This document shows positions 2,244 to 35,530 of a DNA stretch of 36,183 bases, one piece after another. The stretch is from a virus (lineage: Duplodnaviria > Heunggongvirae > Uroviricota > Caudoviricetes), in the IMG/VR virus record IMGVR_UViG_2737471857_000022; one strand, 5' to 3'. Within the stretch, counting starts at the first letter, position 1. The number at the start of each line of letters is the position of its first letter. The notes under the pieces are model-generated. The model saw nothing but the letters and a program-made list of their open reading frames with translations. It was not told where the DNA came from and did not search any database. The translations under genes were made by a program, and so were the position numbers.

Positions 2244-3182
2244 TTGGCAGTAAGAAAAGTTAGTACCGTACATTTCATCATGAAGCATTGCAGCATTGCG
2301 TTTCTGTTCTTCTTCCTCATCTTCTACATCACTAGAAAAATGAGATTTGCCCTTAAAAGAACGAAGTAATTGCAGTGCAGCCATCGGATCACGCATCACA
2401 TCGATTTTCACTTCTACTTCATCATTTGCGGCCTCATCAGCCGCGTTTTCAACTACTGCTACCGGAGCAACTTCTTTAGCTTTCAGTTCTTCAATCTCAG
2501 CTTTCTGTGCTTCGATAATCTGGTCTTTTTCTTCCAGTGCAGCTTTCAGTTCTGCGATCTGTGCTTCCAGTGCAGCAAAGCGATCTTCAACAACCGGAGA
2601 AACAGCATTCACCTGTGCTTCCAGTTCCAGAAATGCTTCGCAAGATTCAATACGTTCTTTCTCTTCACCTTCATAAGCAACCAGTTCTACAACTTCTTTT
2701 TCGGTAGCGTGGCTGTTAAAGAAAACAGCAAAGTAAGGATTGCCGGATTTAGTGAAGTTCAGTTTAGCTTTTCCGGTAACTTCTTTACGACGACCGAAGG
2801 TGATCTGGCAATCAGCGGTATCCTGAAAATCCATGTTAGGAGCGGAAACGATAGCAGTATCACCAGCAATAACCAGGTGGAACAGTTCAGAAGAGTTCTT
2901 AACGGTAAAAGTAACGATGTGGTCTACTGCAACGTCTTTAGCAGGTTTAACGCGGTCGATTGCTTTACGAATGCCGTTAGGCAGTTTACCGTCAACACCA
3001 AAGCCAGCCGCGATCAGTGCTTCACGATGTGCTTTAAAGCCAGCGAAGGCGGATTTCTGCTGCGCAAAGGAAACATGAGCAACAACTTTCGGCTGAATCT
3101 TCTTGTTTGCTTCGGTGCCAAATTTGATAACTGCTTTAGCGTTGGTTACTTCGTTAGTGAAAAAGTTAGCGGAAAATAACAT
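2241..3182 (-). CDS. hypothetical protein (313 aa) with central coiled coil and acidic C-terminus
   Basis: ORF with AGGAG SD 8 nt upstream; heptad-like EAQIAELKAALEEKDQIIEAQKAEIEELKAKE; no family recognised. Confidence 0.6.
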   Translation of the reverse strand: MLFSANFFTNEVTNAKAVIKFGTEANKKIQPKVVAHVSFAQQKSAFAGFKAHREALIAAGFGVDGKLPNGIRKAIDRVKPAKDVAVDHIVTFTVKNSSELFHLVIAGDTAIVSAPNMDFQDTADCQITFGRRKEVTGKAKLNFTKSGNPYFAVFFNSHATEKEVVELVAYEGEEKERIESCEAFLELEAQVNAVSPVVEDRFAALEAQIAELKAALEEKDQIIEAQKAEIEELKAKEVAPVAVVENAADEAANDEVEVKIDVMRDPMAALQLLRSFKGKSHFSSDVEDEEEEQKRNAAMLHDEMYGTNFSYCQ

Positions 3183-3295
3183 TATAAATACTCCTGTGGA
3201 AAGTTAGTTTTAATTGTTCATTTCAAGCCTCCTTTGCTGCAACAAGGGAGGCTTTTTCTTTTTTTAAAGCCATCATATAATTCTCAGTCAAAGTA

Positions 3296-3478
3296 TCAGT
3301 AAACCTCTGCGGTTATCTTTACTTTAATGTCATACTTCTTTAAGAGTTTATGAAAGGTTGATTTATCGATACCCTCATTTTTAAACCACTCTTCAATTCT
3401 CACACCCGGCGTTAACTCAAAGTAGCGTTTAGCCATTTCTAAGATGATTTCGCGAGTGAACTTAACAGGTCGTGCCAT
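3296..3478 (-). CDS. small HTH DNA-binding protein (60 aa), Hin/resolvase-type HTH-like
   Basis: AGGAGG SD 5 nt upstream; ARPVKFT...GIDKSTFHKLLKKYDIK resembles a GRPxK-type HTH; paralogous to CDS 6886..7113. Confidence 0.55.
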   Translation of the reverse strand: MARPVKFTREIILEMAKRYFELTPGVRIEEWFKNEGIDKSTFHKLLKKYDIKVKITAEVY

Positions 3479-3994
3479 CTCGAATCCTCCTACAATGTGG
3501 ATTAATGATTTCTTAAAAAAGAGCGTTAACCGCTCACTATTATTTATATGGGGATTGTATTTTATTTTTCAACCCCTCACATTTATCTCTTATATATGTA
3601 TTTACAACAGAGATATGTTAAAATGTTATTCAGATGTTATCAGGCGTGTTAAATGTGTTAAACCACAGCACGAATTGCTAAAGCGAAGAACACGATTTAA
3701 CCAAATTGATGTATATTCAATCAATTTAGAAAAAGGCATAGCACTTTTTGCTAAAGCGGTGAGCATTAATTGAGCTATGAATTGTAAAGATTTGTTACAA
3801 GATTTTCTCTCAGATCCAAATCTTCACAGACATATAACAATTTAACAGAAGGATAACAATAGGAAGGAAAATCGGTAAATTTTCACTTTCAATACAAATA
3901 TTATGACATATTTATCTCTAATTTTCAAGTATACCACTGTTCCTGCACAGTGTCAACAAAGGACTTTCAAACCTACACTAGCCCTACACTATGA

Positions 3995-4237
3995 AAATTG
4001 CCCCCGAATTTTTGCCCCTGAACCAAAATCCCCTAGATTTCACATCCCATTTTTGCCCCTGAAACCCACTATTTTTGCCCCTGAAATTCTGGGAAACAGT
4101 GATTTTGCCCCTTATTTTTGCCCCTGAAATGCCAATAATTGCCCCTGAAAATCTAATTTTTGCCCCTGAATTTTGCCCCTGAAAAGGATTTGTGAGAAAA
4201 ACTCTTTATAAAACATTAACTTAGTGAGGGGCAAAAC
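3995..4237. repeat. iteron array: at least 6 perfect and 3 degenerate direct copies of TTTTGCCCCTGAA plus one inverted copy
   Basis: Perfect copies start at 4010, 4051, 4073, 4116, 4158 and 4171. Degenerate copies near 3997, 4103 and 4139. Inverted copy GAGGGGCAAAA at 4225-4235. Confidence 0.85.
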
Positions 4238-4239
4238 AG

Positions 4240-4860
4240 GGAATCGGGCGTGCATAGATATTATATAACACATTCGCTACGCTCATGTGTAAAACCAAAA
4301 ACAACAAATAACCAAAAAGATATTAGGAGGGCGTAGCCCGACTGCGCGAAGCGCTAACCAATTACTTCTAGTAACACTAATTTAAACTAGATGATACTAG
4401 ATGGTCTTAGAAGGAATTAACTAGTTTGCTCGCTCGCTTCGCTCACTCTCAAACGTCTGCGACGCCACTGCGTGGCATCGAGAATCACTTCTGAAAGGAT
4501 TTTCTTGAAAGGGATTTTAAACTAGTTACTAACTGATTCTAGAAAGATAGTAATAATCACTTTGAAGATAATAGTAGTTAACTGGTTACTAGATGATTCT
4601 AGATCACTTTAATGATCATGAAAGGTATTGGTTATCCCTTCGGGATTGCAACCTTCGGTTGCTAAATTGCTTCCGGATTATTATTTCTCCAAAAGAAAGA
4701 TTCTTATATTCTAAAGATACTTCTTCGTTTTGATGATGATTTAATCAAAATCTATGAAGGAGGCGAAGCCGACTGAATACCAATTCCTTTCAAATTAGAC
4801 AAAAATTTCTCGTTATAAATAATAGTGTACTTTGTTTGATTCACTTTCTTTTAGAGGATT
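4240..4860. other. about 600 bp non-coding region with clustered ACTAG(A/T)T motifs and tandem UUCG-loop hairpins
   Basis: No ORF of 60 aa or more with an RBS. CTAG-containing motifs at 4366, 4387, 4396, 4420, 4521, 4537, 4588 and 4597. Hairpins at about 4458-4480, 4633-4645 and 4648-4663. Confidence 0.4.
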
Positions 4861-4866
4861 TCCACT

Positions 4867-5319
4867 ATGATCAATACTAAAACTCCTTTCATTCTTCTGG
4901 GTCTGAACCATGATGATAATCTGGCTATGATGCATGTTTTCGCTAATCGTGGTTATAACATCATTCGTCATTCCGAAGACTCCAATTTCTCAACTGCTTT
5001 CTATGCTCTTAAACGTAATGGTCGCCCTACGGTGATCGTAGACTGCTTTACTGATGAAGGTCGTGAACAATACAACAACATTCCGGCAATTATTGTTCGT
5101 GATGACCTGCCGTTTGATGTTCGTGAATATGACGTTGATTTAGGCTCTTACTATGGGATCGCCGATCTTGACCAGATTATGGCTGATTATGGTAAACAAC
5201 CCGCTCAGGAAGCCCCAGAACACGATGAACAAGACGAAGATGACGACGACTACGCACCAATCTGCTTCTCTTCTCAGAATGGCTTCTACGGTTACGATGA
5301 AGGCTTAGATATGCTGTAA
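4867..5319 (+). CDS. hypothetical protein (150 aa) with acidic C-terminal tail
   Basis: ORF with GAGGA SD; codon usage consistent with neighbours; no family recognised. Confidence 0.6.
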   Translation: MINTKTPFILLGLNHDDNLAMMHVFANRGYNIIRHSEDSNFSTAFYALKRNGRPTVIVDCFTDEGREQYNNIPAIIVRDDLPFDVREYDVDLGSYYGIADLDQIMADYGKQPAQEAPEHDEQDEDDDDYAPICFSSQNGFYGYDEGLDML

Positions 5320-15686: not shown

Positions 15687-18600
15687 ATGCAATCAATCCA
15701 ATTTAAACGAACTAATGTTTCTGGCAAAAAACCAACGCCGGAACAATTACAGGTCGGTGAGGTAGCAATCAACCTTAAAGACCATGTTATTTTTACCAAA
15801 GACCGAGATCATGAAGTAGTTCAAATCTCTGTTTCTCCTGAAACTCACGCGGCACTAGAATCTAAAGTTGATGCTAACAAACAAGAACTAGATAGCACAA
15901 TTGCAGTAAATGACCGCAATATTCACGCTAAAGTAGATGAAATTAAACAAACTACTGATGCAACCATCGCAGCAAATCACGCAGAAATTAACAATAAAGT
16001 TGATGTAATTAAACGCGAAACCGACGCGACAATCGAGGCCAATAAAAATAAAGCTGCTTCCGACCTTGCTGGTGTTAAAGCTGAATTGTCGGATACCATC
16101 AACGCTAATAAAAATGCGGCTGCTGTAGCAACTCAGGAACTGGACACCCGCATCAATAAAAAAGTTGATGATATTAAATCCCGCACCGATGCAACCATCG
16201 CAAGCAATGACAAAGCAATCAATGACAAGGTTGATTTGATTAAGGCAGAAACTGACCGCACTATCGCAGCAAATAAAGTCTATGCGGAAAATCAGTTAAC
16301 TGACACCTACAATAACCTTACTGGTGTGATTGCAGCCAATAAGCAAGAGGCAGCGGATAACGTCGCAGCATTAACCCGTGATGTTGAAGCCAAAAATACA
16401 GCAATTCATAGCAAAATTGACAACAACAAGGTTTACACTGATTCTGAATTGGCACGCTTAGAAAGCCGTATTGATGCAGCCGATGGATCTGCTGATGGCA
16501 AGTACATCAAAAAACACGTAAACACTTATACTGATGGTTATTTGCTGTCTAAGACCGCAAACTATTTTGATGATCCAAGTGCGCGTAATCTTGATTACTT
16601 TGGTGCATTCCGTATGAATGACCTAGCGGGTCATATTGCTTTAGCGTTACATGTTCCGCATCCATCCGGCGTTAATCATGCTCGTGGTTTTGAGTTCACT
16701 TATGGGTCTAATCCACATGCTACGGTAAGAACATACGGCTATGATGAATTGGGTCATTTGGCATATTCTCACCGCATGTATCATGAAGGTGATAAACCTA
16801 CTCCGGCTGAAATTGGCGCATATTCGAAAGCAGAAATTGACCGCCTGTTCCAGAAGACGCTTAATTTTGGTATCGAGGGCGGTTGGTTTAAACTAGGCAC
16901 TTTGACAATGCCACAGCAACACGGTCGCACCGCTAAGATCCGTTTGGTTGGTGGTAACGGTTATAACGTCGGGATGAATGGACAAGCCAATATTATCGAA
17001 TTGGTGATTCGATGCGGCAACAATAGCCCGAAAGGTGTTGTATTCAATGCTTATTATAGCATCTGGTATCACGAACAACATTTTTGTGCAATTCCTACCG
17101 ATGGTGATAATTACGATCTTTACGCTTACTATGGTGCACATACAGGATTTGTTTTAGCAGAATATCAAGTTTCTTCCGGTGGTGTTTCTTTAAACCTGTT
17201 GGATACTCCTGAATACCTGGGCGGTGAAAAACCTGTTGCAGATGAAATTTTTGATGCTCTTAACATTTCATCGTTCAATAACTTTAGCAACCGTGGAACG
17301 TTAAATTTTGGCGGAAACCATCAAGGCCAATATGATATTGAGCATTTGAACGAACAACAAACAAATGCTAAAAAGATGTTGCGTCGCTTCCGTAGTTCTG
17401 CTCCTGCCACTATCTGGCATGAAACTGTTGATGATAACGCATATCGTCTTGCTACTGGATACGAAGATACAAATCAGGAATTATTACTGACAGCAACAAC
17501 CGGATTACATATCAAGAAATTAACATTGGATGGCGGTGTTGGTGGAAATTCTGGTATTGATATTCGTCGAGGACCAAATGAAGCAAGCCATTTTAATTTC
17601 ATGGATTATCGCACTGGTCAAGATGTTCGTAATGGCTGGTTTGGTTTTGGTGACGGTCAGACGAAAGATTTTATTTGGTGGAACGATAACGGTCAAAACT
17701 CAATCAACCTGATCGAAAACGGTGAATTGCATATTACTGGTGGTAAAGGCCAGAAAATTGTAATGAATAGCGAAGTTGCATTGTCTGAAAATGCTCGTTT
17801 GGCTGTCAAAGGCGGTAACTATGGTTTGATTTTACGCAATGATGGTTCTGGTTTCCATATTCTTACTACCAATTTAAAAGATTCTTTTGGTAGTTGGAAT
17901 AATCGCAGACCATTCAGTTATGATTTTGCGGACGGTGGATTATATTTAGGTGGTACTGAAACCGCTCGGTGTTTACATCTGGGGATTGATGGTAGCACTC
18001 GTCTTGAAGACAACCTGTTCTTTAAAGCTGGTTCTCGTCAATCTATGGACTATATGGAACTCGTCCATTGGGGGGCAAGCAATACAGGTCGAAATAACGT
18101 TTTAAGTCTTCGTGACTCAAAAGGATTTTTCGCAGAATTTGAAAGATTGGGTGATAATACCATTAAAAACTCCTTCTTTGGTAAACTTAAAATTAATCGC
18201 GGATCTGATGCAATTATCATGAATGCCGAAAGTGGTGATTCTTCTGTATATTTGTTGGGTACGTGTGCTGATAACAATAATTGGTATATCGGTAAAGGCG
18301 GCGCTGATAATGGATTGGCGTTCTATAGTTATGCTACTAATGCTGCTGTAAACATTACAAACGCGGGGGATATCGCTCTAAGTCCAAAAGGCATCGAAAT
18401 GACTCATGTCAATAACGTTCGATTCTATGTTCATGGTGAACGTTGGACTGCTAGCCAATCTGGAGGTTGGAACGACCAGTGGGGATTAGAAGCGCCGATA
18501 TTTGTCGATCATGGTTATGTTTCACCGGACTGTTATTACCCAATTATTAAAGGAAGAAGTTTAATCACCAATCAAGGGTATACAACTGCCGTCGATTTTG

Positions 18601-19097
18601 GTCTGCGTCGTGTTCCTAATGCATGGGGACAAGCAATTATTCGCGTTGGATCTGCGGAGGCATCGCCAGCGGCTGGTCATCCTCAAGCTGTATTCGAGTT
18701 CCATCATGATGGTACTTTTTACTGTCCTGGTAATGGTAACTTTAACGATGTTTATATTCGTTCCGATCGTCGTCTGAAAATTAATGTTGAAGATTACGAA
18801 GAAAATGCGGTGGATAAGGTAAATAAACTCAAAGTTAAAACCTACGATAAAGTTAAATCTCTTAATGACCGAGAAGTTATAGGTCATGAGATTGGTATTA
18901 TCGCACAGGATTTACAAGAGGTATTACCGGAAGCTGTTAAAACCGCAAAAATTGGTGGTTTTGATAACCCAGAAGAAATTTTAACAATTTCAAACTCCGC
19001 AGTGAACGCGCTTTTAATTAAAGCGGTCCAAGAAATGAGCGAAGAAAATAAACTTCTTCGTGAACGTCTTGCTGCAATTGAAGCTAAATTAGGGTAA
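15687..19097 (+). CDS. side (L-shaped-type) tail fibre with C-terminal intramolecular chaperone domain, T5 pb1-like (1136 aa)
   Basis: Four about 22-aa repeats (xIxxKVDxIKxxTDATIxAN) at aa 77-200. C-terminal 110 aa (YIRS/DRRLK...GIIAQDLQEVLPEAVK...NSAVNALLIKAV) resemble the S74-type chaperone of T5 pb1 and endosialidases (recalled). Confidence 0.85.
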   Translation: MQSIQFKRTNVSGKKPTPEQLQVGEVAINLKDHVIFTKDRDHEVVQISVSPETHAALESKVDANKQELDSTIAVNDRNIHAKVDEIKQTTDATIAANHAEINNKVDVIKRETDATIEANKNKAASDLAGVKAELSDTINANKNAAAVATQELDTRINKKVDDIKSRTDATIASNDKAINDKVDLIKAETDRTIAANKVYAENQLTDTYNNLTGVIAANKQEAADNVAALTRDVEAKNTAIHSKIDNNKVYTDSELARLESRIDAADGSADGKYIKKHVNTYTDGYLLSKTANYFDDPSARNLDYFGAFRMNDLAGHIALALHVPHPSGVNHARGFEFTYGSNPHATVRTYGYDELGHLAYSHRMYHEGDKPTPAEIGAYSKAEIDRLFQKTLNFGIEGGWFKLGTLTMPQQHGRTAKIRLVGGNGYNVGMNGQANIIELVIRCGNNSPKGVVFNAYYSIWYHEQHFCAIPTDGDNYDLYAYYGAHTGFVLAEYQVSSGGVSLNLLDTPEYLGGEKPVADEIFDALNISSFNNFSNRGTLNFGGNHQGQYDIEHLNEQQTNAKKMLRRFRSSAPATIWHETVDDNAYRLATGYEDTNQELLLTATTGLHIKKLTLDGGVGGNSGIDIRRGPNEASHFNFMDYRTGQDVRNGWFGFGDGQTKDFIWWNDNGQNSINLIENGELHITGGKGQKIVMNSEVALSENARLAVKGGNYGLILRNDGSGFHILTTNLKDSFGSWNNRRPFSYDFADGGLYLGGTETARCLHLGIDGSTRLEDNLFFKAGSRQSMDYMELVHWGASNTGRNNVLSLRDSKGFFAEFERLGDNTIKNSFFGKLKINRGSDAIIMNAESGDSSVYLLGTCADNNNWYIGKGGADNGLAFYSYATNAAVNITNAGDIALSPKGIEMTHVNNVRFYVHGERWTASQSGGWNDQWGLEAPIFVDHGYVSPDCYYPIIKGRSLITNQGYTTAVDFGLRRVPNAWGQAIIRVGSAEASPAAGHPQAVFEFHHDGTFYCPGNGNFNDVYIRSDRRLKINVEDYEENAVDKVNKLKVKTYDKVKSLNDREVIGHEIGIIAQDLQEVLPEAVKTAKIGGFDNPEEILTISNSAVNALLIKAVQEMSEENKLLRERLAAIEAKLG

Positions 19098-19103
19098 TTG
19101 GAA

Positions 19104-19123
19104 AGCGGGGAGAAATCTCCGCT
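19104..19123 (+). other. stem-loop after the fibre gene
   Basis: AGCGGGGA-GAAA-TCTCCGCT, one mismatch, no T tract. Confidence 0.3.
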
Positions 19124-19135
19124 AAGGATTCTTAT

Positions 19136-19432
19136 ATGGGATATTGGGTAAGTAGTGAAATTAATACTAAAATCGATGCTTTAAAATGGCATGTATTTGA
19201 TATTCCTAACGGCTATGGTACTGCTCGTGCTGGTGTCGCTGTAATGCGTCATAATGCTGGTGGTGGGTGGTCTGATGCACATATTAACGTAGATGGTTTG
19301 ACCGTTGCTCGTCGTCGTGGTGGGACCAATTGGGGATCTACTATAAATTCGTTTGTTCCTGCTGGCTGCACCGTCTCCTTTGGTTTAGGGGGTGAAGGTG
19401 GTGTTGAATATTTTAAATTCATGGAGTTTTAA
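19136..19432 (+). CDS. small fibre-module protein, paralogue A (98 aa)
   Basis: AAGGA SD; shares W..(F/Y)FDIPNG(W/Y), Gly-rich middle and TVSF...YFKF with the next two ORFs. Confidence 0.65.
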   Translation: MGYWVSSEINTKIDALKWHVFDIPNGYGTARAGVAVMRHNAGGGWSDAHINVDGLTVARRRGGTNWGSTINSFVPAGCTVSFGLGGEGGVEYFKFMEF

Positions 19433-19434
19433 TT

Positions 19435-19740
19435 ATGGCTGGATGGATAAATCAAAGAATGTCAAACGCTATTAGTATTTGGGCTAATGGTGGATATTTT
19501 GATATCCCCAACGGCTGGGTTACTGATTCATGCGGAATTGTTTTTGCTCATATGGAAGCCATTAACGGTGCTGGTGATCTTGATTCTGAATTGGCTGTAA
19601 ATGGATTGATTGAATCAGGTCATCATGCTGGTGATGCTGGGAGTTGGGGCGCTAGTTCTTTAGTTGGCGCTGGTGCTACCGTTAGCTTTACATTGGGTAA
19701 AGGTAGTTTGCATTATTTTAAATTCAGGAGAATGCACTAA
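19435..19740 (+). CDS. small fibre-module protein, paralogue B (101 aa)
   Basis: Start 2 nt after the stop of A; same motif set. Confidence 0.65.
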   Translation: MAGWINQRMSNAISIWANGGYFDIPNGWVTDSCGIVFAHMEAINGAGDLDSELAVNGLIESGHHAGDAGSWGASSLVGAGATVSFTLGKGSLHYFKFRRMH

Positions 19741-20042
19741 TGGCATTTTGGGTAGATGGCGCTTTGGGGAATAGGGCGGGTAAAGCAAATCAAGGATGGT
19801 TTGATATTCCTAACGGTTGGACAGCCGACGCTTTCGGGACTATTTCATTCTGTGCTCATTCTTCCGGTGGTGGCGGTGGTGACTCTGAATTGCTTATTCA
19901 TGGTTTGTGTGTTTCTGGAAGCCATAAGGGTCATGATTGGGGACAGATTCATTCTTGTATTGCACCGCAAGGGGCGGTAATTACCGTTAGCACAAATAGG
20001 GGGATCGCTCATCTTCGTTATAGACGTTTGAGCAACCGCTAA
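19740..20042 (+). CDS. small fibre-module protein, paralogue C (100 aa)
   Basis: TAATG stop/start overlap with B; same motif set, more diverged C-terminus. Confidence 0.6.
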   Translation: MAFWVDGALGNRAGKANQGWFDIPNGWTADAFGTISFCAHSSGGGGGDSELLIHGLCVSGSHKGHDWGQIHSCIAPQGAVITVSTNRGIAHLRYRRLSNR

Positions 20043-20096
20043 ATAAATAGAATTACGGGTATGTGCCCTATTGTTTAAAATAGAAGGAAAAGAATA

Positions 20097-30927: not shown

Positions 30928-31281
30928 ATGTTAAGTAAGCATTTTTCTCGCAAGGAATTTAAATGTAAATGCGGAAAATGTGATTATGATACAATCGACG
31001 CTGAATTACTGGTAATTCTTGAGGATGTACGAGAACACTTCGGTAAACCAGTGATTATTAACAGTGGCAACCGTTGCCCGGCTCATAACAAGAATGTAGG
31101 CGGGGCAACCAACAGCTATCACGTTCGAGGCCGTGCGGCTGACATTGTGGTCAAGGGTGTCTCCCCTGATATTGTCCATGCTTATCTTGATGGGAAATAT
31201 CCTACTCAATACGGCTTAGGAAAATATAAAACCTTTACGCATATTGATTCCAGATCAAAAAAATCACGGTGGAATGGATAA
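30928..31281 (+). CDS. endolysin, zinc peptidase M15 family (117 aa)
   Basis: SGNRCPAHNKNVGGATNSYHVRGRAADIVV ... FTHID gives a His/Asp/His metal-ligand pattern typical of M15 peptidases; TAAGGGGGTAAT SD. Confidence 0.75.
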   Translation: MLSKHFSRKEFKCKCGKCDYDTIDAELLVILEDVREHFGKPVIINSGNRCPAHNKNVGGATNSYHVRGRAADIVVKGVSPDIVHAYLDGKYPTQYGLGKYKTFTHIDSRSKKSRWNG

Positions 31282-31287
31282 AATTAA

Positions 31288-31311
31288 AGCGCCTCTAGTG
31301 GGCGCTTTTTT
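31288..31311. terminator. bidirectional terminator between convergent genes
   Basis: AGCGCC-TCTAGTG-GGCGCT with T6 on + strand and an A/T tract on the other side. Confidence 0.65.
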
Positions 31312-31312
31312 G

Positions 31313-31894
31313 TTAGAATATGCTGGCGACGTTAGCTATATTTCTGACCATTTTTTCATTATAAACAAACGTTTCTGTAGCACCTTCTTTAATATCAAAA
31401 TCACCTTTTACTAGGTTTTTCTTGATAAACAATTCTGCCGCGTATGCGTCTTTTTCGTCTTGAAATTCGAAAGTCTCGATGATATCAAATTTCATCTTAT
31501 TCTGGCATCTTAGCTTATGTTTTCTCGTCAACACATTGTGACTTACTCCAACCTTACCCACATCACCACACCGCATAACATATAATACTGGTTGCCCATT
31601 TTTATATTTGTTGTCATATTTGCTACGATTACACGGGCACACAGTAGGATTATGTAAGAATTGTTTTGCTGTTATATCTCTGATTCTTGCGCAGCTTTCA
31701 CACTCTAGCACAATACGGCTATTGATTGATTTATACTCACCTTTGAATCCGTGATAAATCAAGGGTAAACCCTCGTTTTCAATACGGGTCACGATCCTTG
31801 CTTCCATATCAATTGGATGTGATGGCGCTTTGCCATTTTTGGTGCGGATAAAATTGAACGGGATATCACATGCTTTGCGCACATCATTCATCAT
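31313..31894 (-). CDS. zinc-ribbon plus GIY-YIG-like (T5orf172-type) domain protein (about 193 aa from ATG 31894; ORF opens at GTG 31906)
   Basis: CESCARIRDITAKQFLHNPTVCPC then PVLYVMRCGDVGKVGVSHN..R..H; paralogous to CDS 32423..33421; GAGG SD. Confidence 0.55.
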   Translation of the reverse strand: MMNDVRKACDIPFNFIRTKNGKAPSHPIDMEARIVTRIENEGLPLIYHGFKGEYKSINSRIVLECESCARIRDITAKQFLHNPTVCPCNRSKYDNKYKNGQPVLYVMRCGDVGKVGVSHNVLTRKHKLRCQNKMKFDIIETFEFQDEKDAYAAELFIKKNLVKGDFDIKEGATETFVYNEKMVRNIANVASIF

Positions 31895-31934
31895 AAAAAA
31901 CCTCACTTAATTTATCTTATAGGCATTACCTTTA

Positions 31935-32387
31935 ATGTTGATGATCGAGTTCGTAGAAACCGAATTAACTAAACTGGCTTCCGAAATGGAAGAAGAAACT
32001 CCGGCAGAAGGAACCAGTATTAACGATCTTATTCTGGCAGCAGACACCGCAGATGATAAAGTGATATTCGACGAAGTTGATCCGTCTCTGGTTGAAGCAA
32101 TGAAAGAACCTGAGATCGCCATTGAAGAAACAAAAGAAGAATCTCCAGCAGTTGAACCAGTGGTCGAAGAAGTTAAGTCAGATGTTGAAGAAGCACCGGA
32201 AGTTAAAGTGGAATCTCCGGTAGCCAACATTTTCTCTAACGAAGCAGAACATCGTTCCCCAGCACATGACACTGATTCATTTTGCGATCTTACTGGCTTC
32301 CGTCCGACCATTTGCTTGATCGGTGGCGGTCGTGGTTACTACTCCTGCCCGTGGTCTTCAACCATTACAACAAATTTTTCTCAATAA
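31935..32387 (+). CDS. acidic low-complexity protein (150 aa); existence uncertain
   Basis: Glu/Pro/Val/Ala-rich ORF with host-like codon usage but no clear SD; the antisense ORF 31907..32311 is an alternative reading. Confidence 0.35.
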   Translation: MLMIEFVETELTKLASEMEEETPAEGTSINDLILAADTADDKVIFDEVDPSLVEAMKEPEIAIEETKEESPAVEPVVEEVKSDVEEAPEVKVESPVANIFSNEAEHRSPAHDTDSFCDLTGFRPTICLIGGGRGYYSCPWSSTITTNFSQ

Positions 32388-32422
32388 ATAGTAGTGAACT
32401 TATTATTTTCGAGGACACTAAT

Positions 32423-33421
32423 ATGAATACTACTTTAGCAAAGGATATCGAATTTACCGCAAAAAGCAAACGTGCGACCCCTCCGGTCGAATATGAAACC
32501 AGAATCATTAAAGTTTGTCAAGCGCATGGATGGTTATACAGTGGTTTTGTGCTTCCTGTAAAGAAACCATTCCAGAACACCAAAGTTTGCATAGAAGTTA
32601 ACGGAAAGGTTAAAACGCCATGTATTAGTCATGTTCTAACTGGTCAGTTTACTGGCAAAGATAGAGTATCACCGCCTAAGAAGAAGTTTAGATTTACCGA
32701 AGAAGAACACTTAGAAAACGCTCGCAAGTTCTACAAGCCGATAGGGTGGGATGTGTTAGGTCTGGCTGAACCTTATCAGGGTGTTGACACTAAACTAATT
32801 CTTCGTTGTAAGTGCCACGGAAAGATTCACAAGAAAGGTGATTTACACAATAACCGCAGACAAGGCGGGTTAACATGCCCTTTGGTTAGGGGTGTACTTA
32901 AATCAATTCAGAATGGTAGAAAACAGGTTATCAGAAACAAGTTTGCACAGCGCCCTATGCACTTTTATCTAATTCGTGTTGGCGAGAAGTTTTTCAAATA
33001 TGGAATTACCACTCGCAAAGATCCGATGCAACGGGTAAGAGAACACCAGAAGCACACCAGCGAGAAAATCACCTTTGAATGCTCACATTTGTTTAACATT
33101 GGATGGAAAGCTGGTGATTTAGAAATGGGGATTAAAAAGAATATTCAGGGCAAGAAAATCCCACGTAAGGTAATGAATAGCGGATTCACAGAAACGCTAC
33201 CGATTAGCAAGCTGAAAGATGTTAAATCATTCATCAATGAATACATCCACACCAACCCATCTAAGCCAATGTATTTTGATGATACCAACGCAATCAATCT
33301 GAACAACTACATTAGTGATGAAGACATAGAACGAGATTTATCGCAGTGGATGAATGCACCGTTAGCTGATTTAACACCGGAAAACTTAGAACTCGATTTA
33401 AGCCCTTTAGAGGCTCTCTAA
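32423..33421 (+). CDS. zinc-ribbon plus GIY-YIG-like (T5orf172-type) domain protein (333 aa from ATG 32423)
   Basis: GAGGA SD 7 nt upstream; LRCKCHGKIHKKGDLHNN...LTCP then MHFYLIRVGEKFFKYGITTR...R.REH; paralogue of 31313..31894. Confidence 0.6.
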   Translation: MNTTLAKDIEFTAKSKRATPPVEYETRIIKVCQAHGWLYSGFVLPVKKPFQNTKVCIEVNGKVKTPCISHVLTGQFTGKDRVSPPKKKFRFTEEEHLENARKFYKPIGWDVLGLAEPYQGVDTKLILRCKCHGKIHKKGDLHNNRRQGGLTCPLVRGVLKSIQNGRKQVIRNKFAQRPMHFYLIRVGEKFFKYGITTRKDPMQRVREHQKHTSEKITFECSHLFNIGWKAGDLEMGIKKNIQGKKIPRKVMNSGFTETLPISKLKDVKSFINEYIHTNPSKPMYFDDTNAINLNNYISDEDIERDLSQWMNAPLADLTPENLELDLSPLEAL

Positions 33422-33494
33422 CGCAATTAAATTCAAAAGGGGTACGAATGTACCCCTTAACTGTTTTAGCTCGTTATACGTCGATTTAGGCCGC

Positions 33495-35174
33495 TTAAAT
33501 TCCAAATTCCTGTAATGGACCTGATATTTCCTCTTCTGGTTTCCAGTTCTTATCTGTCAGCATGTCTAAACATGGATGCAAAACAAGCCCGTTACTTTCC
33601 AGAATCTGTCTATCATTGATAGTTTTCAAATCAACGAAGATCCGGCCTTTCCTCGGTCCTCTTGAATTTTCTATTACAACTCTCTGGGTCTTGCCATCGA
33701 TGTATTCCAGTACAAACAAGTTTTTGTACTTGTCAATCCTGCTACACCCGATCCGTTTTAGAGCTTGCTTAATCTTAAACCGGACCTTAATGCGATCCTC
33801 GTTGTAAACATCTTCTAAATCAAATTCTGCGAGCTTCTCCCAGCCTTGAGAGTCAACAGAATACATTTCCTCTTCTGCCATCTTGATCTGATTGTAGAGT
33901 GTTTCACGCTCGCTATTGAGGGTAGTAATCTGATCGGCTAGTTCCTTCGTTGCTCCTGTCATAGCAGAAAGGGCAATCAGGTTATCAATCTTGCGTGATA
34001 TCTCATCAACCTGTACTTTCAACGCCGGAACCGGATTAGCCTTATCCTCAGCAATCCAGATTTTATCAGCCAGCAATTGCAATACAGCTTTCTCTAATTG
34101 ATCACCTCGAAAACTCCAGTTTGTATGCACACATGCAATACGACTAGAGCGCATTGCATCGCATGAATAACGATATTGGTTAGGACGTTTGTTAGTTCCT
34201 TTCACCTTAACCATAGCGGAACCGCAATGTTCACATTTCAATAGACCAACACCACTAAGCAAGGGAATAGGTTTAACTTCTTCCTTGTCTCCATAGTTAC
34301 ATGCTCTAACACCAATGCTTTTCTTAAGGTGATAAAACTCAGCGTCATCTAGCACACGAGGATAATAATCCTTTAACTCATACTTAACGCCATCTACAGA
34401 GATTTCCTTGATACCAATCAAAGCGCGGGTATGGAACAACCTTTCAATCATTGCCCGTGACCAGTTTGAATGCCTCTTGTGACTTGCGGCTGGTGGTGGT
34501 GTGTATGTCGCGTTAAGGTGATCCAGTATCTCGGCGGTTGACCGTCCATTCCTGCGTAATTCCACAACTTCCTGAACAATAGGGAAGAAGACCGGATGAG
34601 GAAGCACATAACCAGATGTGGTATCAGTCCACCACATATTCTTTCCAATTTCCTCGATTGCAACAGCCGGATTTTGTGGATTTTCTTGATGAGCTTTAAT
34701 CTTAATCAATGCGCTTGAGTTAGTACGATTGCGCTTAGTCTGACTTTCCTCGTTAGCTCTCGCAAACAACATGACACTCAACAGCAAATCAATAGGATTG
34801 GCATTAACCGATTCCTTGCTATAGACCTTACCATCCATGCCAGTTACGATAGTTATTCCCCTACGGATAATCGAGAGAAATAGCTCTTGTGCTTCAATGA
34901 TGGATTGGCGAGAGATACGGTCTAAGTTTTCCACAACCAGCCAGCTACCAACCGGAACGGATCGACCAATCTCATCCAGAAAGCGAGATAGTGCACCTGT
35001 TCTACTGTTAGCCCCTTTGAATGCAGATACACCAAAATCCTGATAGCTTGTAACTAGCTCAAGATCATATTTTGCGGCTATCTCTGCGGCTGTTCTCTTC
35101 TGGCGTTCATAAGAACTACCATCCGCTTGCTTCATAGACGAGAAGCGAATATACGAATACAGTTTAGTTTTCAT
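33495..35174 (-). CDS. large serine recombinase (phage integrase), about 559 aa from ATG 35174
   Basis: N-terminal resolvase motifs YIRFSSMKQ, SYERQ, LVVENLDRISRQ; zinc ribbon CEHCGSAMV...YSCDAMRSSRIAC; C-terminal coiled coil. Confidence 0.85.
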   Translation of the reverse strand: MKTKLYSYIRFSSMKQADGSSYERQKRTAAEIAAKYDLELVTSYQDFGVSAFKGANSRTGALSRFLDEIGRSVPVGSWLVVENLDRISRQSIIEAQELFLSIIRRGITIVTGMDGKVYSKESVNANPIDLLLSVMLFARANEESQTKRNRTNSSALIKIKAHQENPQNPAVAIEEIGKNMWWTDTTSGYVLPHPVFFPIVQEVVELRRNGRSTAEILDHLNATYTPPPAASHKRHSNWSRAMIERLFHTRALIGIKEISVDGVKYELKDYYPRVLDDAEFYHLKKSIGVRACNYGDKEEVKPIPLLSGVGLLKCEHCGSAMVKVKGTNKRPNQYRYSCDAMRSSRIACVHTNWSFRGDQLEKAVLQLLADKIWIAEDKANPVPALKVQVDEISRKIDNLIALSAMTGATKELADQITTLNSERETLYNQIKMAEEEMYSVDSQGWEKLAEFDLEDVYNEDRIKVRFKIKQALKRIGCSRIDKYKNLFVLEYIDGKTQRVVIENSRGPRKGRIFVDLKTINDRQILESNGLVLHPCLDMLTDKNWKPEEEISGPLQEFGI

Positions 35175-35193
35175 ACCATTTCCAAACAAAAAC

Positions 35194-35239: not shown

Positions 35240-35485
35240 TTAATATTTCTTTCCAGTTAGTTTTGCATCACGTTTATTAATATCCTCGATATGACTCCAT
35301 ACACACGCAGTAATAAAGTCGTCATCGTCACCAACTCCGGCAACCTGTGCTAATTCAGTACACAGTTGATTTAAAGAAGGTGCAACGGCAGCACGTTTGA
35401 CACTATCACCCTGTACATATTGTTCGGCATTCGCAGCACCAACCAAACCCAGAGCAAGAACGATACCAGCGATAATCTTTTTCAT
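35240..35485 (-). CDS. small secreted protein (81 aa) with cleavable signal peptide
   Basis: MKKIIAGIVLALGLVGAANA/EQ is a typical Sec signal with AxA site; AAGAGGA SD; two Cys in the mature part. Confidence 0.6.
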   Translation of the reverse strand: MKKIIAGIVLALGLVGAANAEQYVQGDSVKRAAVAPSLNQLCTELAQVAGVGDDDDFITACVWSHIEDINKRDAKLTGKKY

Positions 35486-35530
35486 AGTAGAATTTCCTCT
35501 TGTTATTTGAATTACGATATATTTATATCG

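Follow-up and report, generated by a model that had tools for sequence, protein, structure and literature searches.

What are two nuclease-like genes on opposite strands doing between the lysis genes and the integrase of a temperate phage, and what is the acidic open reading frame (ORF) that lies between them? The question is raised by positions 31,313 to 33,421 of IMG/VR record IMGVR_UViG_2737471857_000022 (Caudoviricetes), a stretch of 36,183 nucleotides (nt) that was analysed as a whole and is here called the window. An earlier note, made from the letters of the sequence, had read the two proteins, which we call A and B, as paralogues with a zinc ribbon followed by a GIY-YIG-like core, had likened the acidic ORF to anti-restriction proteins that mimic DNA, and had proposed the trio as a defence, counter-defence or mobile nuclease cassette. 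Our own reading, to which we give a probability of roughly 0.6, is that the trio is a homing-endonuclease island of the T-even type in the endolysin/integrase slot of an Escherichia coli temperate phage integrated in hicB, that it carries a passenger fragment of the phage gene inh, and that it is still exchanging DNA with Krischvirus. The three ORFs were all found in the ORF list, between endolysin and integrase, where the earlier note had placed them, and their features lie far outside what chance would produce.

The acidic frame and its two flanking genes

The acidic ORF, on the plus strand at 31935-32387, is real as an ORF and derives from a known phage gene. When megablast was run against 50,697 phage records, only 31941-32355 of the window was matched; the matches came from 59 records of Krischvirus (RB49-like Straboviridae), all over exactly that stretch, and the gene was always inh, "inhibitor of prohead protease", with a top identity of 99.5% in phages Sf20 and KFS-EC. 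In the alignment with inh of Shigella phage Sf20 (726 nt), nt 145-559 are in frame and correspond to residues 49-186 of 241; 413/415 nt are identical, the two mismatches fall at 32064 and 32249, and homology stops abruptly at both ends. At the protein level the ORF is 97% identical to amino acids (aa) 44-186 of Sf20 Inh and matches phrog_1051 (1e-20). It lacks the first 48 residues of Inh, hence Phage_Inh_N, and the last 55, while its final 10 residues are unrelated. The 241-aa phage Inh carries PF26098 and PF26097 (Phage_Inh_N) and the 150-aa prophage forms have no Pfam domain on record; a 186-aa form, longer toward the N-terminus, carries Phage_Inh_N, and by inference the second Inh domain would be located in the missing last 55 residues. 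The acidic ORF, which we call Inh', is a fragment and not a member of full-length Inh (both terminal domains, about 241 aa), and it keeps the motif INDLIxAADxxDxKxxFDE. As the earlier note had seen, no Shine-Dalgarno (SD) sequence precedes it, nor is there a promoter-like element upstream. Its acidity (35 D+E against 9 K+R in 150 aa), which had suggested a DNA mimic, is explained because it is inherited from the acidic middle of Inh. Judged by its sequence, the acidic ORF is passenger DNA, an internal inh piece of an RB49-like Krischvirus. An antisense ORF at 31907-32311 (minus strand) was judged to be a by-product of the inh reading frame.

For gene A, listed as 31313-31906, the likely start is the ATG at 31894, preceded by GTGAGG, which gives a protein of 193 aa; gene B, listed as an ORF starting with TTG at 32282, in fact begins with the ATG at 32423, which has GAGGA 8 nt before it and gives 332 aa. 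Both starts are those called by PGAP in E. coli, for A in identical prophages. The mutual similarity of A and B is weak (BLASTP E=0.013), and both match phrog_681, "endonuclease" (2e-22 and 5e-20, respectively). The CapR zinc finger (PF21817) scores 26.0 bits in gene A, above the curated cut-off of 24.2, and a borderline 15.5 bits in gene B, below the cut-off and in a CxCH...CP variant; B-family members P0014-P0018 hold precomputed PF21817 matches, and the A homologues P0141 and P0142 precomputed matches to PF10544 (T5orf172). By tblastn, B finds gene 173 of Krischvirus JK32 and orf172 of phage T5, the founding member of the T5orf172 family.

The conserved GIY tyrosine, the YIG-type K/Y-x-Gly, the helix-1 arginine and the helix-2 glutamate, plus a G-x-T-E motif, are invariant in both proteins: Y182, K192 and G194 (K192-Y-G194), R204, E234, G254 and E257 in an 18-member alignment of B, and Y105, K114 and G116 (K114-V-G116), R124, E154, G171 and E174 in 6 homologues of A. 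The positions of these residues agree with the predicted strands and helices, and by analogy they would be catalytic, an assignment made from motif position and not from residue-level superposition. The zinc motif C65-x2-C68...C86-P87-C88 is invariant among A homologues, so that the Cys-x2-Cys...Cys-Pro ribbon once read in both proteins stands for A; B has a slightly different one, C129-x-C131-H...C152-P, in which C129, C131, C152 and P153 are invariant in the 18-member alignment. AlphaFold models (mean pLDDT 79 and 76) have the beta-beta-alpha-beta-alpha order of GIY-YIG domains, and the structural neighbours include the GIY-YIG defence nuclease PD-T4-3. Profile and structure searches for T5orf172, GIY-YIG and zinc-ribbon folds had been suggested by the earlier note; the phrog_681 matches, the CapR score of A and the AlphaFold fold order, together with the invariant residues, bear out the ribbon and the GIY-YIG-like core in both proteins. 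A B-family profile had no match among PDB sequences, and NCBIfam gave none for A, B or Inh'.

T5orf172 is a subfamily of GIY-YIG; a CapR zinc finger with CxxC...CxC is present in 41.5% of T5orf172 homing endonuclease genes (HEGs), and CapR plus T5orf172 is the commonest architecture among T5orf172 homing endonucleases (PMC10448857). Because A has exactly the CxxC...CxC motif and B the CxCH...CP variant, their architecture is that of a free-standing phage homing endonuclease, and it is this that supports the option of a mobile nuclease cassette. By sequence, profile and predicted fold, A and B are free-standing homing-endonuclease-like genes with a CapR DNA-binding module, a T5orf172 nuclease and intact catalytic-type residues. 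The ratio of non-synonymous to synonymous substitution (dN/dS) is 0.09-0.23 for B, a sign of purifying selection.

The C-terminus of B (window 33350-33421) deserves a separate remark. Conservation is far higher in its acidic tail, ...NAPLADLTPENLELDLSPLEAL, than in the remainder of the protein; the tail is near-identical in the P0014 group, 36% identical overall, and it is left as a scar in the "empty" sites L026 and L028 (L numbers are our handles for loci). The tail could be a recombination boundary or a protein-binding peptide.

Exchange, decay and control at the slot

Homologues of B (99% to 36% identical) stand beside the integrase in all eight related prophages that were looked up, from E. 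coli and Salmonella; one listed B homologue is annotated from Proteus. The window, L016 and L017 have A and an inh piece. In L020, A is accompanied by a hoc fragment at 4488-4943 (aa 180-328 of 408, 55% identical to Sf20 Hoc, phrog_1149), which replaces the inh piece. A full-length uvsW (2772-4277) is found with A in L021, uvsW.1 and uvsW (2480-4276) with A in L024, where the B relative is 34% identical to JK32_00173 over its full length, a full uvsW (2914-4404) in L027, and aa 1-223 of uvsW in L018, where a third CapR-like gene precedes the endolysin. In L029 and in UTME-9 (L032), a complete genome, the slot consists of a gene for a 52-aa mini-Inh, 58 bp from the 3' end of uvsW.1, an inh piece of nt 38-559 and B; L023 holds mini-Inh, a 150-aa ORF (4505-4957) and a 419-aa B relative. 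UvsW is intact in L021, L024 and L027 (496-501 aa, 71-73% identical to Krischvirus UvsW), the UvsW.1 of L024 is 95% identical, and gene A abuts or overlaps the uvsW start codon in L021 and L024. In Krischvirus, uvsW.1 and uvsW share a strand; they are followed by inh, a small ORF and hoc, which lie on the opposite one. Since uvsW.1, uvsW, inh and hoc are adjacent there, every captured piece comes from one contiguous T4-like neighbourhood.

The mini-Inh gene (L029 1093-1251; L032 1119-1277; L023 4172-4330) is present on about 70 E. coli contigs, in two alleles that have the same length and share 79% identity, and it matches only Inh of T4-like phages of Providencia, Morganella, Acinetobacter and Proteus, at the conserved Inh motif. 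On the phage side, Shigella phage JK32 (Krischvirus; L019 3669-4754 = MK962753.1 116168-117253) carries, at the junction of uvsW and uvsW.1, a CapR-like gene of 361 aa that resembles B across the nuclease region; Sf20, whose uvsW and uvsW.1 are 44 bp apart, lacks it. The third CapR-like gene of L018 (2836-3873, 345 aa, with two CapR-like matches) lies between a 115-aa gene and the endolysin, and is similar to A, B and JK32_00173 via their nuclease regions; because it sits before the endolysin, more than one site near the lysis genes can be invaded. The 150-aa ORF of L023 has a weak Ig V-set match (E=0.036) and may be another captured fragment of an Ig-like head-decoration protein. A recent transfer of the uvsW pieces of L018 and L024 was rejected, their identity to any Krischvirus being only 71-79%.

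Several comparisons point to exchange. The 99.5% match to a living Krischvirus implies at least one very recent exchange with that group. L004 and L005 share their left and right junctions, and the inh piece of about 240 nt between them is of RB49 type in L004 and about 20% different in L005; for the divergent L005 piece no closer donor was found among the sampled phages (best 81.6%). The window and L016 form a mosaic, with 95-100% identity in the integrase, 83-98% in the endolysin, about 45% in A, 46-60% in the middle of inh and 65-88% in B. The A genes of the two are effectively different alleles (37% protein identity), and a 96-100% island at 31900-31990 spans the stretch upstream of A together with roughly the first 50 nt of the inh piece. 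On these sequences, the mosaic breakpoints are placed at nuclease-gene edges, as Barth et al. describe for "HEG islands". Taken together, the 415-bp tract of 99.5% identity, the L004/L005 replacement and the edge breakpoints are high-identity flanking tracts of the co-conversion type. RB49-type phages have unmodified cytosine and spare host DNA, which would make recombination between prophage and phage easier.

Decay is equally visible. Among 5,426 complete E. coli genomes, 37 have traces of the cassette: it is intact in 7/37, 11/37 lack A but have B and an inh piece that is partial or longer, only a 57-bp remnant of A is left in 17/37, and only a 46-bp remnant of B in 2/37. A and B are each present or absent among prophages whose backbone is 95-99% identical, and the absent alleles examined are all scarred, with no clean empty sites. 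L003, L004, L005 and L028 have lost window 31370-32045 and kept 57 bp of the 3' end of A; in the "empty" L026, 31 bp of inh are fused to the last 46 bp of B, and one deletion junction is the left arm of the hairpin at 31286-31308. In L029 and UTME-9 the inh piece is longer and A is missing, which fits a later arrival of A. Homing endonuclease genes are said, after Goddard and Burt in 1999, to cycle through invasion, degeneration and loss, and the decay pattern fits such a cycle, unlike that of a strongly selected immunity gene. In E. coli 39EVA (NZ_CP138416.1 1246296-1249673), an IS1A element lies inside the matched stretch and the copy of the region is otherwise complete.

The 50 nt upstream of B show stronger conservation than B does. 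TAAATA, within an xATAAATA box, is invariant in 12 upstream regions (11 of B, 1 of mini-Inh), and the exact T4 late-promoter consensus, TATAAATA, precedes B in L005, L020 and L023 and mini-Inh in L029. Sf20 itself has TATAAATA ahead of uvsW and AATAAATA ahead of both inh and uvsW.1. At the start of B lies a hairpin whose 5' arm, ATAGTAGTG, shares bases with the box and whose 3' arm, CACTAATAT, takes in the AU of the start codon; the SD sequence GAGGA (32411-32415) is placed between the arms. RNAalifold gave an 8-bp consensus hairpin with two compensatory pairs, and the minimum free energy is -11 to -15 kcal/mol in five alleles (z -3.9 to -5.3). A late promoter combined with a hairpin over the ribosome-binding site is known for I-TevI, I-TevII, I-TevIII, segB and mobE (Edgell, Gibb, Belfort; PMC2988022). 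Sequence and folding point to an expression control of T-even type for B; no late promoter and hairpin of this type were found in the A upstream region. Gene A has a box of its own, GCCTATAAGATAAAT, inside the 31900-31990 island; four A alleles share it exactly and two others almost exactly, although the identity of the A proteins is no more than 37-51%. No operator similarity in the style of I-TevI was found, beyond 6-8 nt, when phage inh junction sites were compared with the regions upstream of A and B. The features of the region are collected in Table 1.

Table 1. Elements of the endolysin/integrase slot and its borders, in window coordinates
Feature	Position	Strand	Basis
M15 endolysin, left backbone gene of the cargo slot	30928..31281	+	Pfam Peptidase_M15_3 2e-28; phrog_894 endolysin 2e-46
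Bidirectional terminator-like hairpin common to endolysin and gene A	31286..31308	.	Terminator scan, both strands
Gene A, 193 aa: CapR zinc finger (CxxC...CPC) and T5orf172/GIY-YIG nuclease domain	31313..31894	-
Conserved promoter-like box GCCTATAAGATAAAT upstream of A, followed by SD GTGAGG	31910..31924	-
Krischvirus inh internal fragment (nt 145-559, codons 49-186 of 241), in frame in ORF 31935-32387	31941..32355	+
T4-late-promoter-like box AATAAATA (consensus TATAAATA) upstream of B	32383..32390	+
Start-codon hairpin of B	32388..32424	+	RNAalifold, folding
Gene B, 332 aa: degenerate CapR-like repeat, CapR-like zinc finger (CxCH...CP), T5orf172/GIY-YIG domain, conserved acidic C-terminal tail	32423..33421	+
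Bidirectional terminator-like hairpin common to B and integrase	33437..33458	.	Terminator scan, both strands
Large serine recombinase (integrase), right backbone gene of the slot	33495..35189	-	Pfam Resolvase, Recombinase, Zn_ribbon_recom

A probable homing-endonuclease island and its rivals

From the comparison of loci, a history and a mechanism can be proposed. A block of T4-like DNA, uvsW.1-uvsW-inh (to nt 559), would have entered the temperate phage with B as its rightmost gene, and A would then have been placed between uvsW and inh. Different lineages would have lost different parts by microhomology deletions, and alleles would have been swapped through recombination events whose breakpoints fall at nuclease-gene borders. 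The inh piece would have been exchanged with an infecting Krischvirus, and this explains its 99.5% identity. From the late-type promoter of B, transcripts would start inside the 5' arm of the hairpin that otherwise hides the start codon; B protein would therefore be made chiefly when an infecting T4-like phage brings in its late transcription machinery, and this point, which depends on sequence and folding models, is the weakest link of the mechanism. B may then cut the incoming phage near the prophage inh end (codon 186/187) or elsewhere in uvsW-inh-hoc, and the break would be repaired from the homologous prophage DNA, so that the nuclease gene or markers beside it would spread, as happens in T-even marker exclusion. 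The element would be mainly selfish, passing through a cycle of invasion, decay and loss.

Two groups of known systems come close to this picture. Like the T5orf172/CapR HEGs of the ICP1 gp165/gp174 type and T5 orf172 (Barth, Dunham & Seed 2023, PMC10448857), A and B have CapR-type zinc finger(s) followed by a T5orf172 nuclease, and they are free-standing genes bounding DNA that is near-identical between otherwise unrelated genomes, with repeated or degenerate DNA-binding modules (B has two) and allele swapping at gene edges. Unlike those islands, the cassette belongs to a temperate phage or prophage, and the DNA that it shares derives from a phage of another family that is lytic and T4-like; only 415 bp are shared, an internal gene fragment and not an essential operon. 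With the T-even HEGs of the seg (GIY-YIG) and mob (HNH) groups (PMC2988022) it has in common the GIY-YIG superfamily fold, intergenic or gene-splitting insertion in T4-like neighbourhoods, a late box placed so that late transcripts would miss the 5' arm of a start-covering hairpin, and signs of co-conversion of flanking DNA. It differs from them in that A and B belong to the T5orf172 subfamily with CapR fingers and not Seg-type DNA-binding domains, in being prophage-resident, and in the window box, AATAAATA.

A number of observations weigh against a homing-endonuclease island. The T4-like homology of B is on its upstream side only, so that simple two-armed homing from this donor is not obviously possible. 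Among the sampled Krischvirus, none has B inside inh or A between uvsW and inh. Searches for a T4-like phage with A or B beside inh (megablast and tblastn against the 50,697 records, and two IMG/VR scans) returned only the same prophage family and distant relatives, among them JK32_00173, T5 orf172 and Klebsiella phage genes; the closest phage relative of B, JK32_00173, is only 26-35% identical across the aligned segments and lies at another junction. The control signals are not perfect in the window itself, where the B box is the non-consensus AATAAATA and an A at 32421, in place of the C of other B alleles, weakens the hairpin from -12.8 to -6.6 kcal/mol (z -1.6), a change that, from the folding model, may loosen translational control of B. 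On the nuclease side, the Pfam scores of gene A are under the gathering cut-offs for T5orf172 (16.8 bits; 20), MUG113 (16.4; 22.3) and GIY-YIG (12.9; 22.6), and gene B has no Pfam T5orf172 match at all, its only nuclease-side match being MUG113 at 13.1 bits; the T5orf172 scores are offset by the phrog_681 matches and by PF10544 on the A homologues. Finally, there are hints that the Inh-derived peptides are more than passengers. The inh pieces keep an open frame with in-frame indels only and dN/dS of 0.15-0.31 at dS from 0.46 to about 3, and the mini-Inh gene, which consists of the conserved Inh motif only (GFNINDLITAADSLDGKFTFDE), has its own TATAAATA box, hairpin, SD sequence and terminator. 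As the inh piece has been replaced from outside, the selection on it may have acted in phages, before its conversion into the prophage.

These last observations are also those on which the best surviving rival is built, namely that the cassette has been domesticated for interference with Krischvirus: B (and A) would cut the invader, Inh' and mini-Inh would jam the gp21 prohead protease and, in other alleles, UvsW would unwind replication R-loops at the wrong time, all switched on by the invader's late transcription. We regard this as possible, though unlikely. The cassette does occupy an accessory slot between lysis genes and integrase, but A, or A together with inh' and B, is deleted in 30/37 of the E. 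coli genomes with traces, and deletion or erosion on this scale argues against a strongly selected defence island. The T4-late-type promoter and hairpin are kept upstream of B and mini-Inh across alleles whose proteins are 36-75% identical, B and the inh pieces are under purifying selection with all indels in frame, and the two mini-Inh alleles have the same length; the selection on inh, as said, may be older than the prophage copy. Inh' keeps INDLIxAADxxDxKxxFDE, the sole stretch of distant-Straboviridae Inh matched by mini-Inh, and in this it resembles Krischvirus and T4 Inh (inhibitor of the gp21 prohead protease and minor head protein); it differs from them in having neither the N-terminal domain nor the last 55 residues, and in the window it has no SD sequence, late promoter or Inh Pfam domain. 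Full-length UvsW and UvsW.1 are intact in several prophages, and the phages probably share hosts, given the Krischvirus-like tail-fibre DNA in the same prophage; yet the co-occurrence of inh, uvsW and hoc follows more simply from their adjacency in T4-like genomes, and the hoc Ig-domain fragment of L020 has no plausible inhibitory role. PD-T4-3 is a structural neighbour, but A and B differ from it and from other GIY-YIG defence nucleases in their DNA-binding domains, and PADLOC-DB v2, searched with A, B and the middle ORF, gave only marginal matches (PD-Lambda-1 at E 0.005-0.007 for B, HamB at 0.003 for the acidic ORF) and no sequence-level match. The defence cassette that the earlier note had also envisaged is unproven.

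A bolder version, which we find a little more doubtful still, would make the cassette an infection-triggered trap. T4-derived genes placed behind T4-late promoters, with start codons in hairpins, would be made only during T4-like late transcription and would then sabotage that phage, B and A cutting uvsW-inh-hoc, Inh' and mini-Inh blocking the prohead protease and, in other alleles, UvsW acting at the wrong moment; the near-identity of the inh piece would reflect its continual re-matching to the current enemy by gene conversion.

It is improbable, to a greater degree, that the locus is an inert relic, a fossil in decay since a single old event of illegitimate recombination with a T4-like phage, in which A and B are inactive and the signals leftover. 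Such a fossil would account for the widespread deletion derivatives and scars, for the IS1 insertion within the searched stretch of strain 39EVA, for the weakened hairpin of the window and for an Inh' without expression signals. It sits badly with intact A and B ORFs whose catalytic-type residues are invariant over saturated synonymous divergence, with a B box and hairpin conserved through compensatory changes, and with the 99.5% Krischvirus identity and the L004/L005 conversion, which speak for recent activity of the locus.

We consider it very improbable that A and/or B have been domesticated as DNA-binding proteins only, repressing head genes (inh, hoc region) of a T4-like phage or prophage as the PLE protein CapR does on the ICP1 capsid operon. 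Here CapR offers a precedent for a domesticated T5orf172 relative (PMC10448857; PMC8096241), and the CapR-domain matches and the origin of the captured fragments in head genes would suit such a role; in both proteins, nevertheless, the GIY-YIG-type domain is complete and its conserved Tyr, Arg and Glu are in place, and the comparison of phage inh junctions with the A and B upstream regions revealed no operator. PLE CapR and ICP1 Odn are similar to our case in that nuclease-derived proteins have moved between a lytic phage and an integrated element, with recent DNA exchange; they differ in that CapR is a repressor and Odn is phage-encoded and has a satellite origin as its target, whereas A and B keep nuclease motifs. 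As for the Ocr/ArdA-like DNA mimic that would block type I restriction alongside two defence or counter-defence nucleases, it has acidic composition only in its favour and can practically be discarded, the ORF being a 99.5% identical in-frame fragment of a phage head-protein gene (the acidic middle of Inh) without SD sequence or promoter, partly deleted in many prophages, and with no Pfam or NCBIfam match and so none to an anti-restriction family.

The host prophage and the meaning of the exchange

The prophage is of about 33 kb, with the cassette region at its right end, and a near-identical copy is integrated in hicB of E. coli ETEC1717, where the gene order is terminase, portal, capsid and tail genes, then the M15 endolysin and the large serine recombinase. 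In the window, positions 1 to about 2900 are host genes (rlhA, yncJ, hicA and the 5' part of hicB); the antitoxin gene hicB is split by the prophage, with its 3' part on the far side of the integrase, at about 36183. Krischvirus-like DNA is found again, as a second and independent block, in the tail-fibre region of this siphovirus-like prophage (16550-20058), which has 83-93% DNA identity to the gene for the distal subunit of the long tail fibre and downstream genes of Krischvirus (KFS-EC, 92.7% over 17208-19403; G37-3, 86.7% over 16773-20058). Because the prophage carries such tail-fibre DNA as well, the temperate phage and Krischvirus probably meet in the same host cells. By tblastn, no further paralogues of A or B and no other T4-like fragments were found elsewhere in the window.

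Adjoining the integrase, an 81-aa ORF (35240-35485, minus strand) begins with a signal-peptide-like sequence at its N-terminus and has no PHROG match. An exact TATAAATA box is located at 35520-35527 (minus strand), 35 nt before its start, which is also preceded by an AGAGGA SD sequence and by ...CTACTATG, resembling the B upstream region. The ORFs called by PGAP in L003-L005, which start inside the endolysin stop and read through the terminator, are doubtful as genes.

In our literature searches no earlier description was found of the cassette, or of Inh fragments in prophages. What is new here is that the exchange joins a temperate phage with a virulent T4-like one, that an internal gene fragment is exchanged, and that signals for T-even late control are kept in a prophage nuclease gene. 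For annotators the locus is a warning that acidic, "DNA-mimic-like" ORFs can be captured pieces of phage structural genes.

The locus offers a tractable case of recent DNA exchange between temperate and virulent T4-like phages, bounded by homing-endonuclease-like genes, and it marks a recombination hot spot between temperate and lytic phage; lysogens such as ETEC1717 and the phages RB49, Sf20 and KFS-EC are sequenced and in public records. If B is indeed driven by the invader's late transcription, a prophage gene would sense T4-like infection via promoter specificity, which would provide both a paradigm of defence and a genetic tool. The idea that nucleases mark the borders of genetic exchange is extended in this way across phage families and lifestyles, and the finding suggests that prophages can be reservoirs of T-even homing endonucleases.

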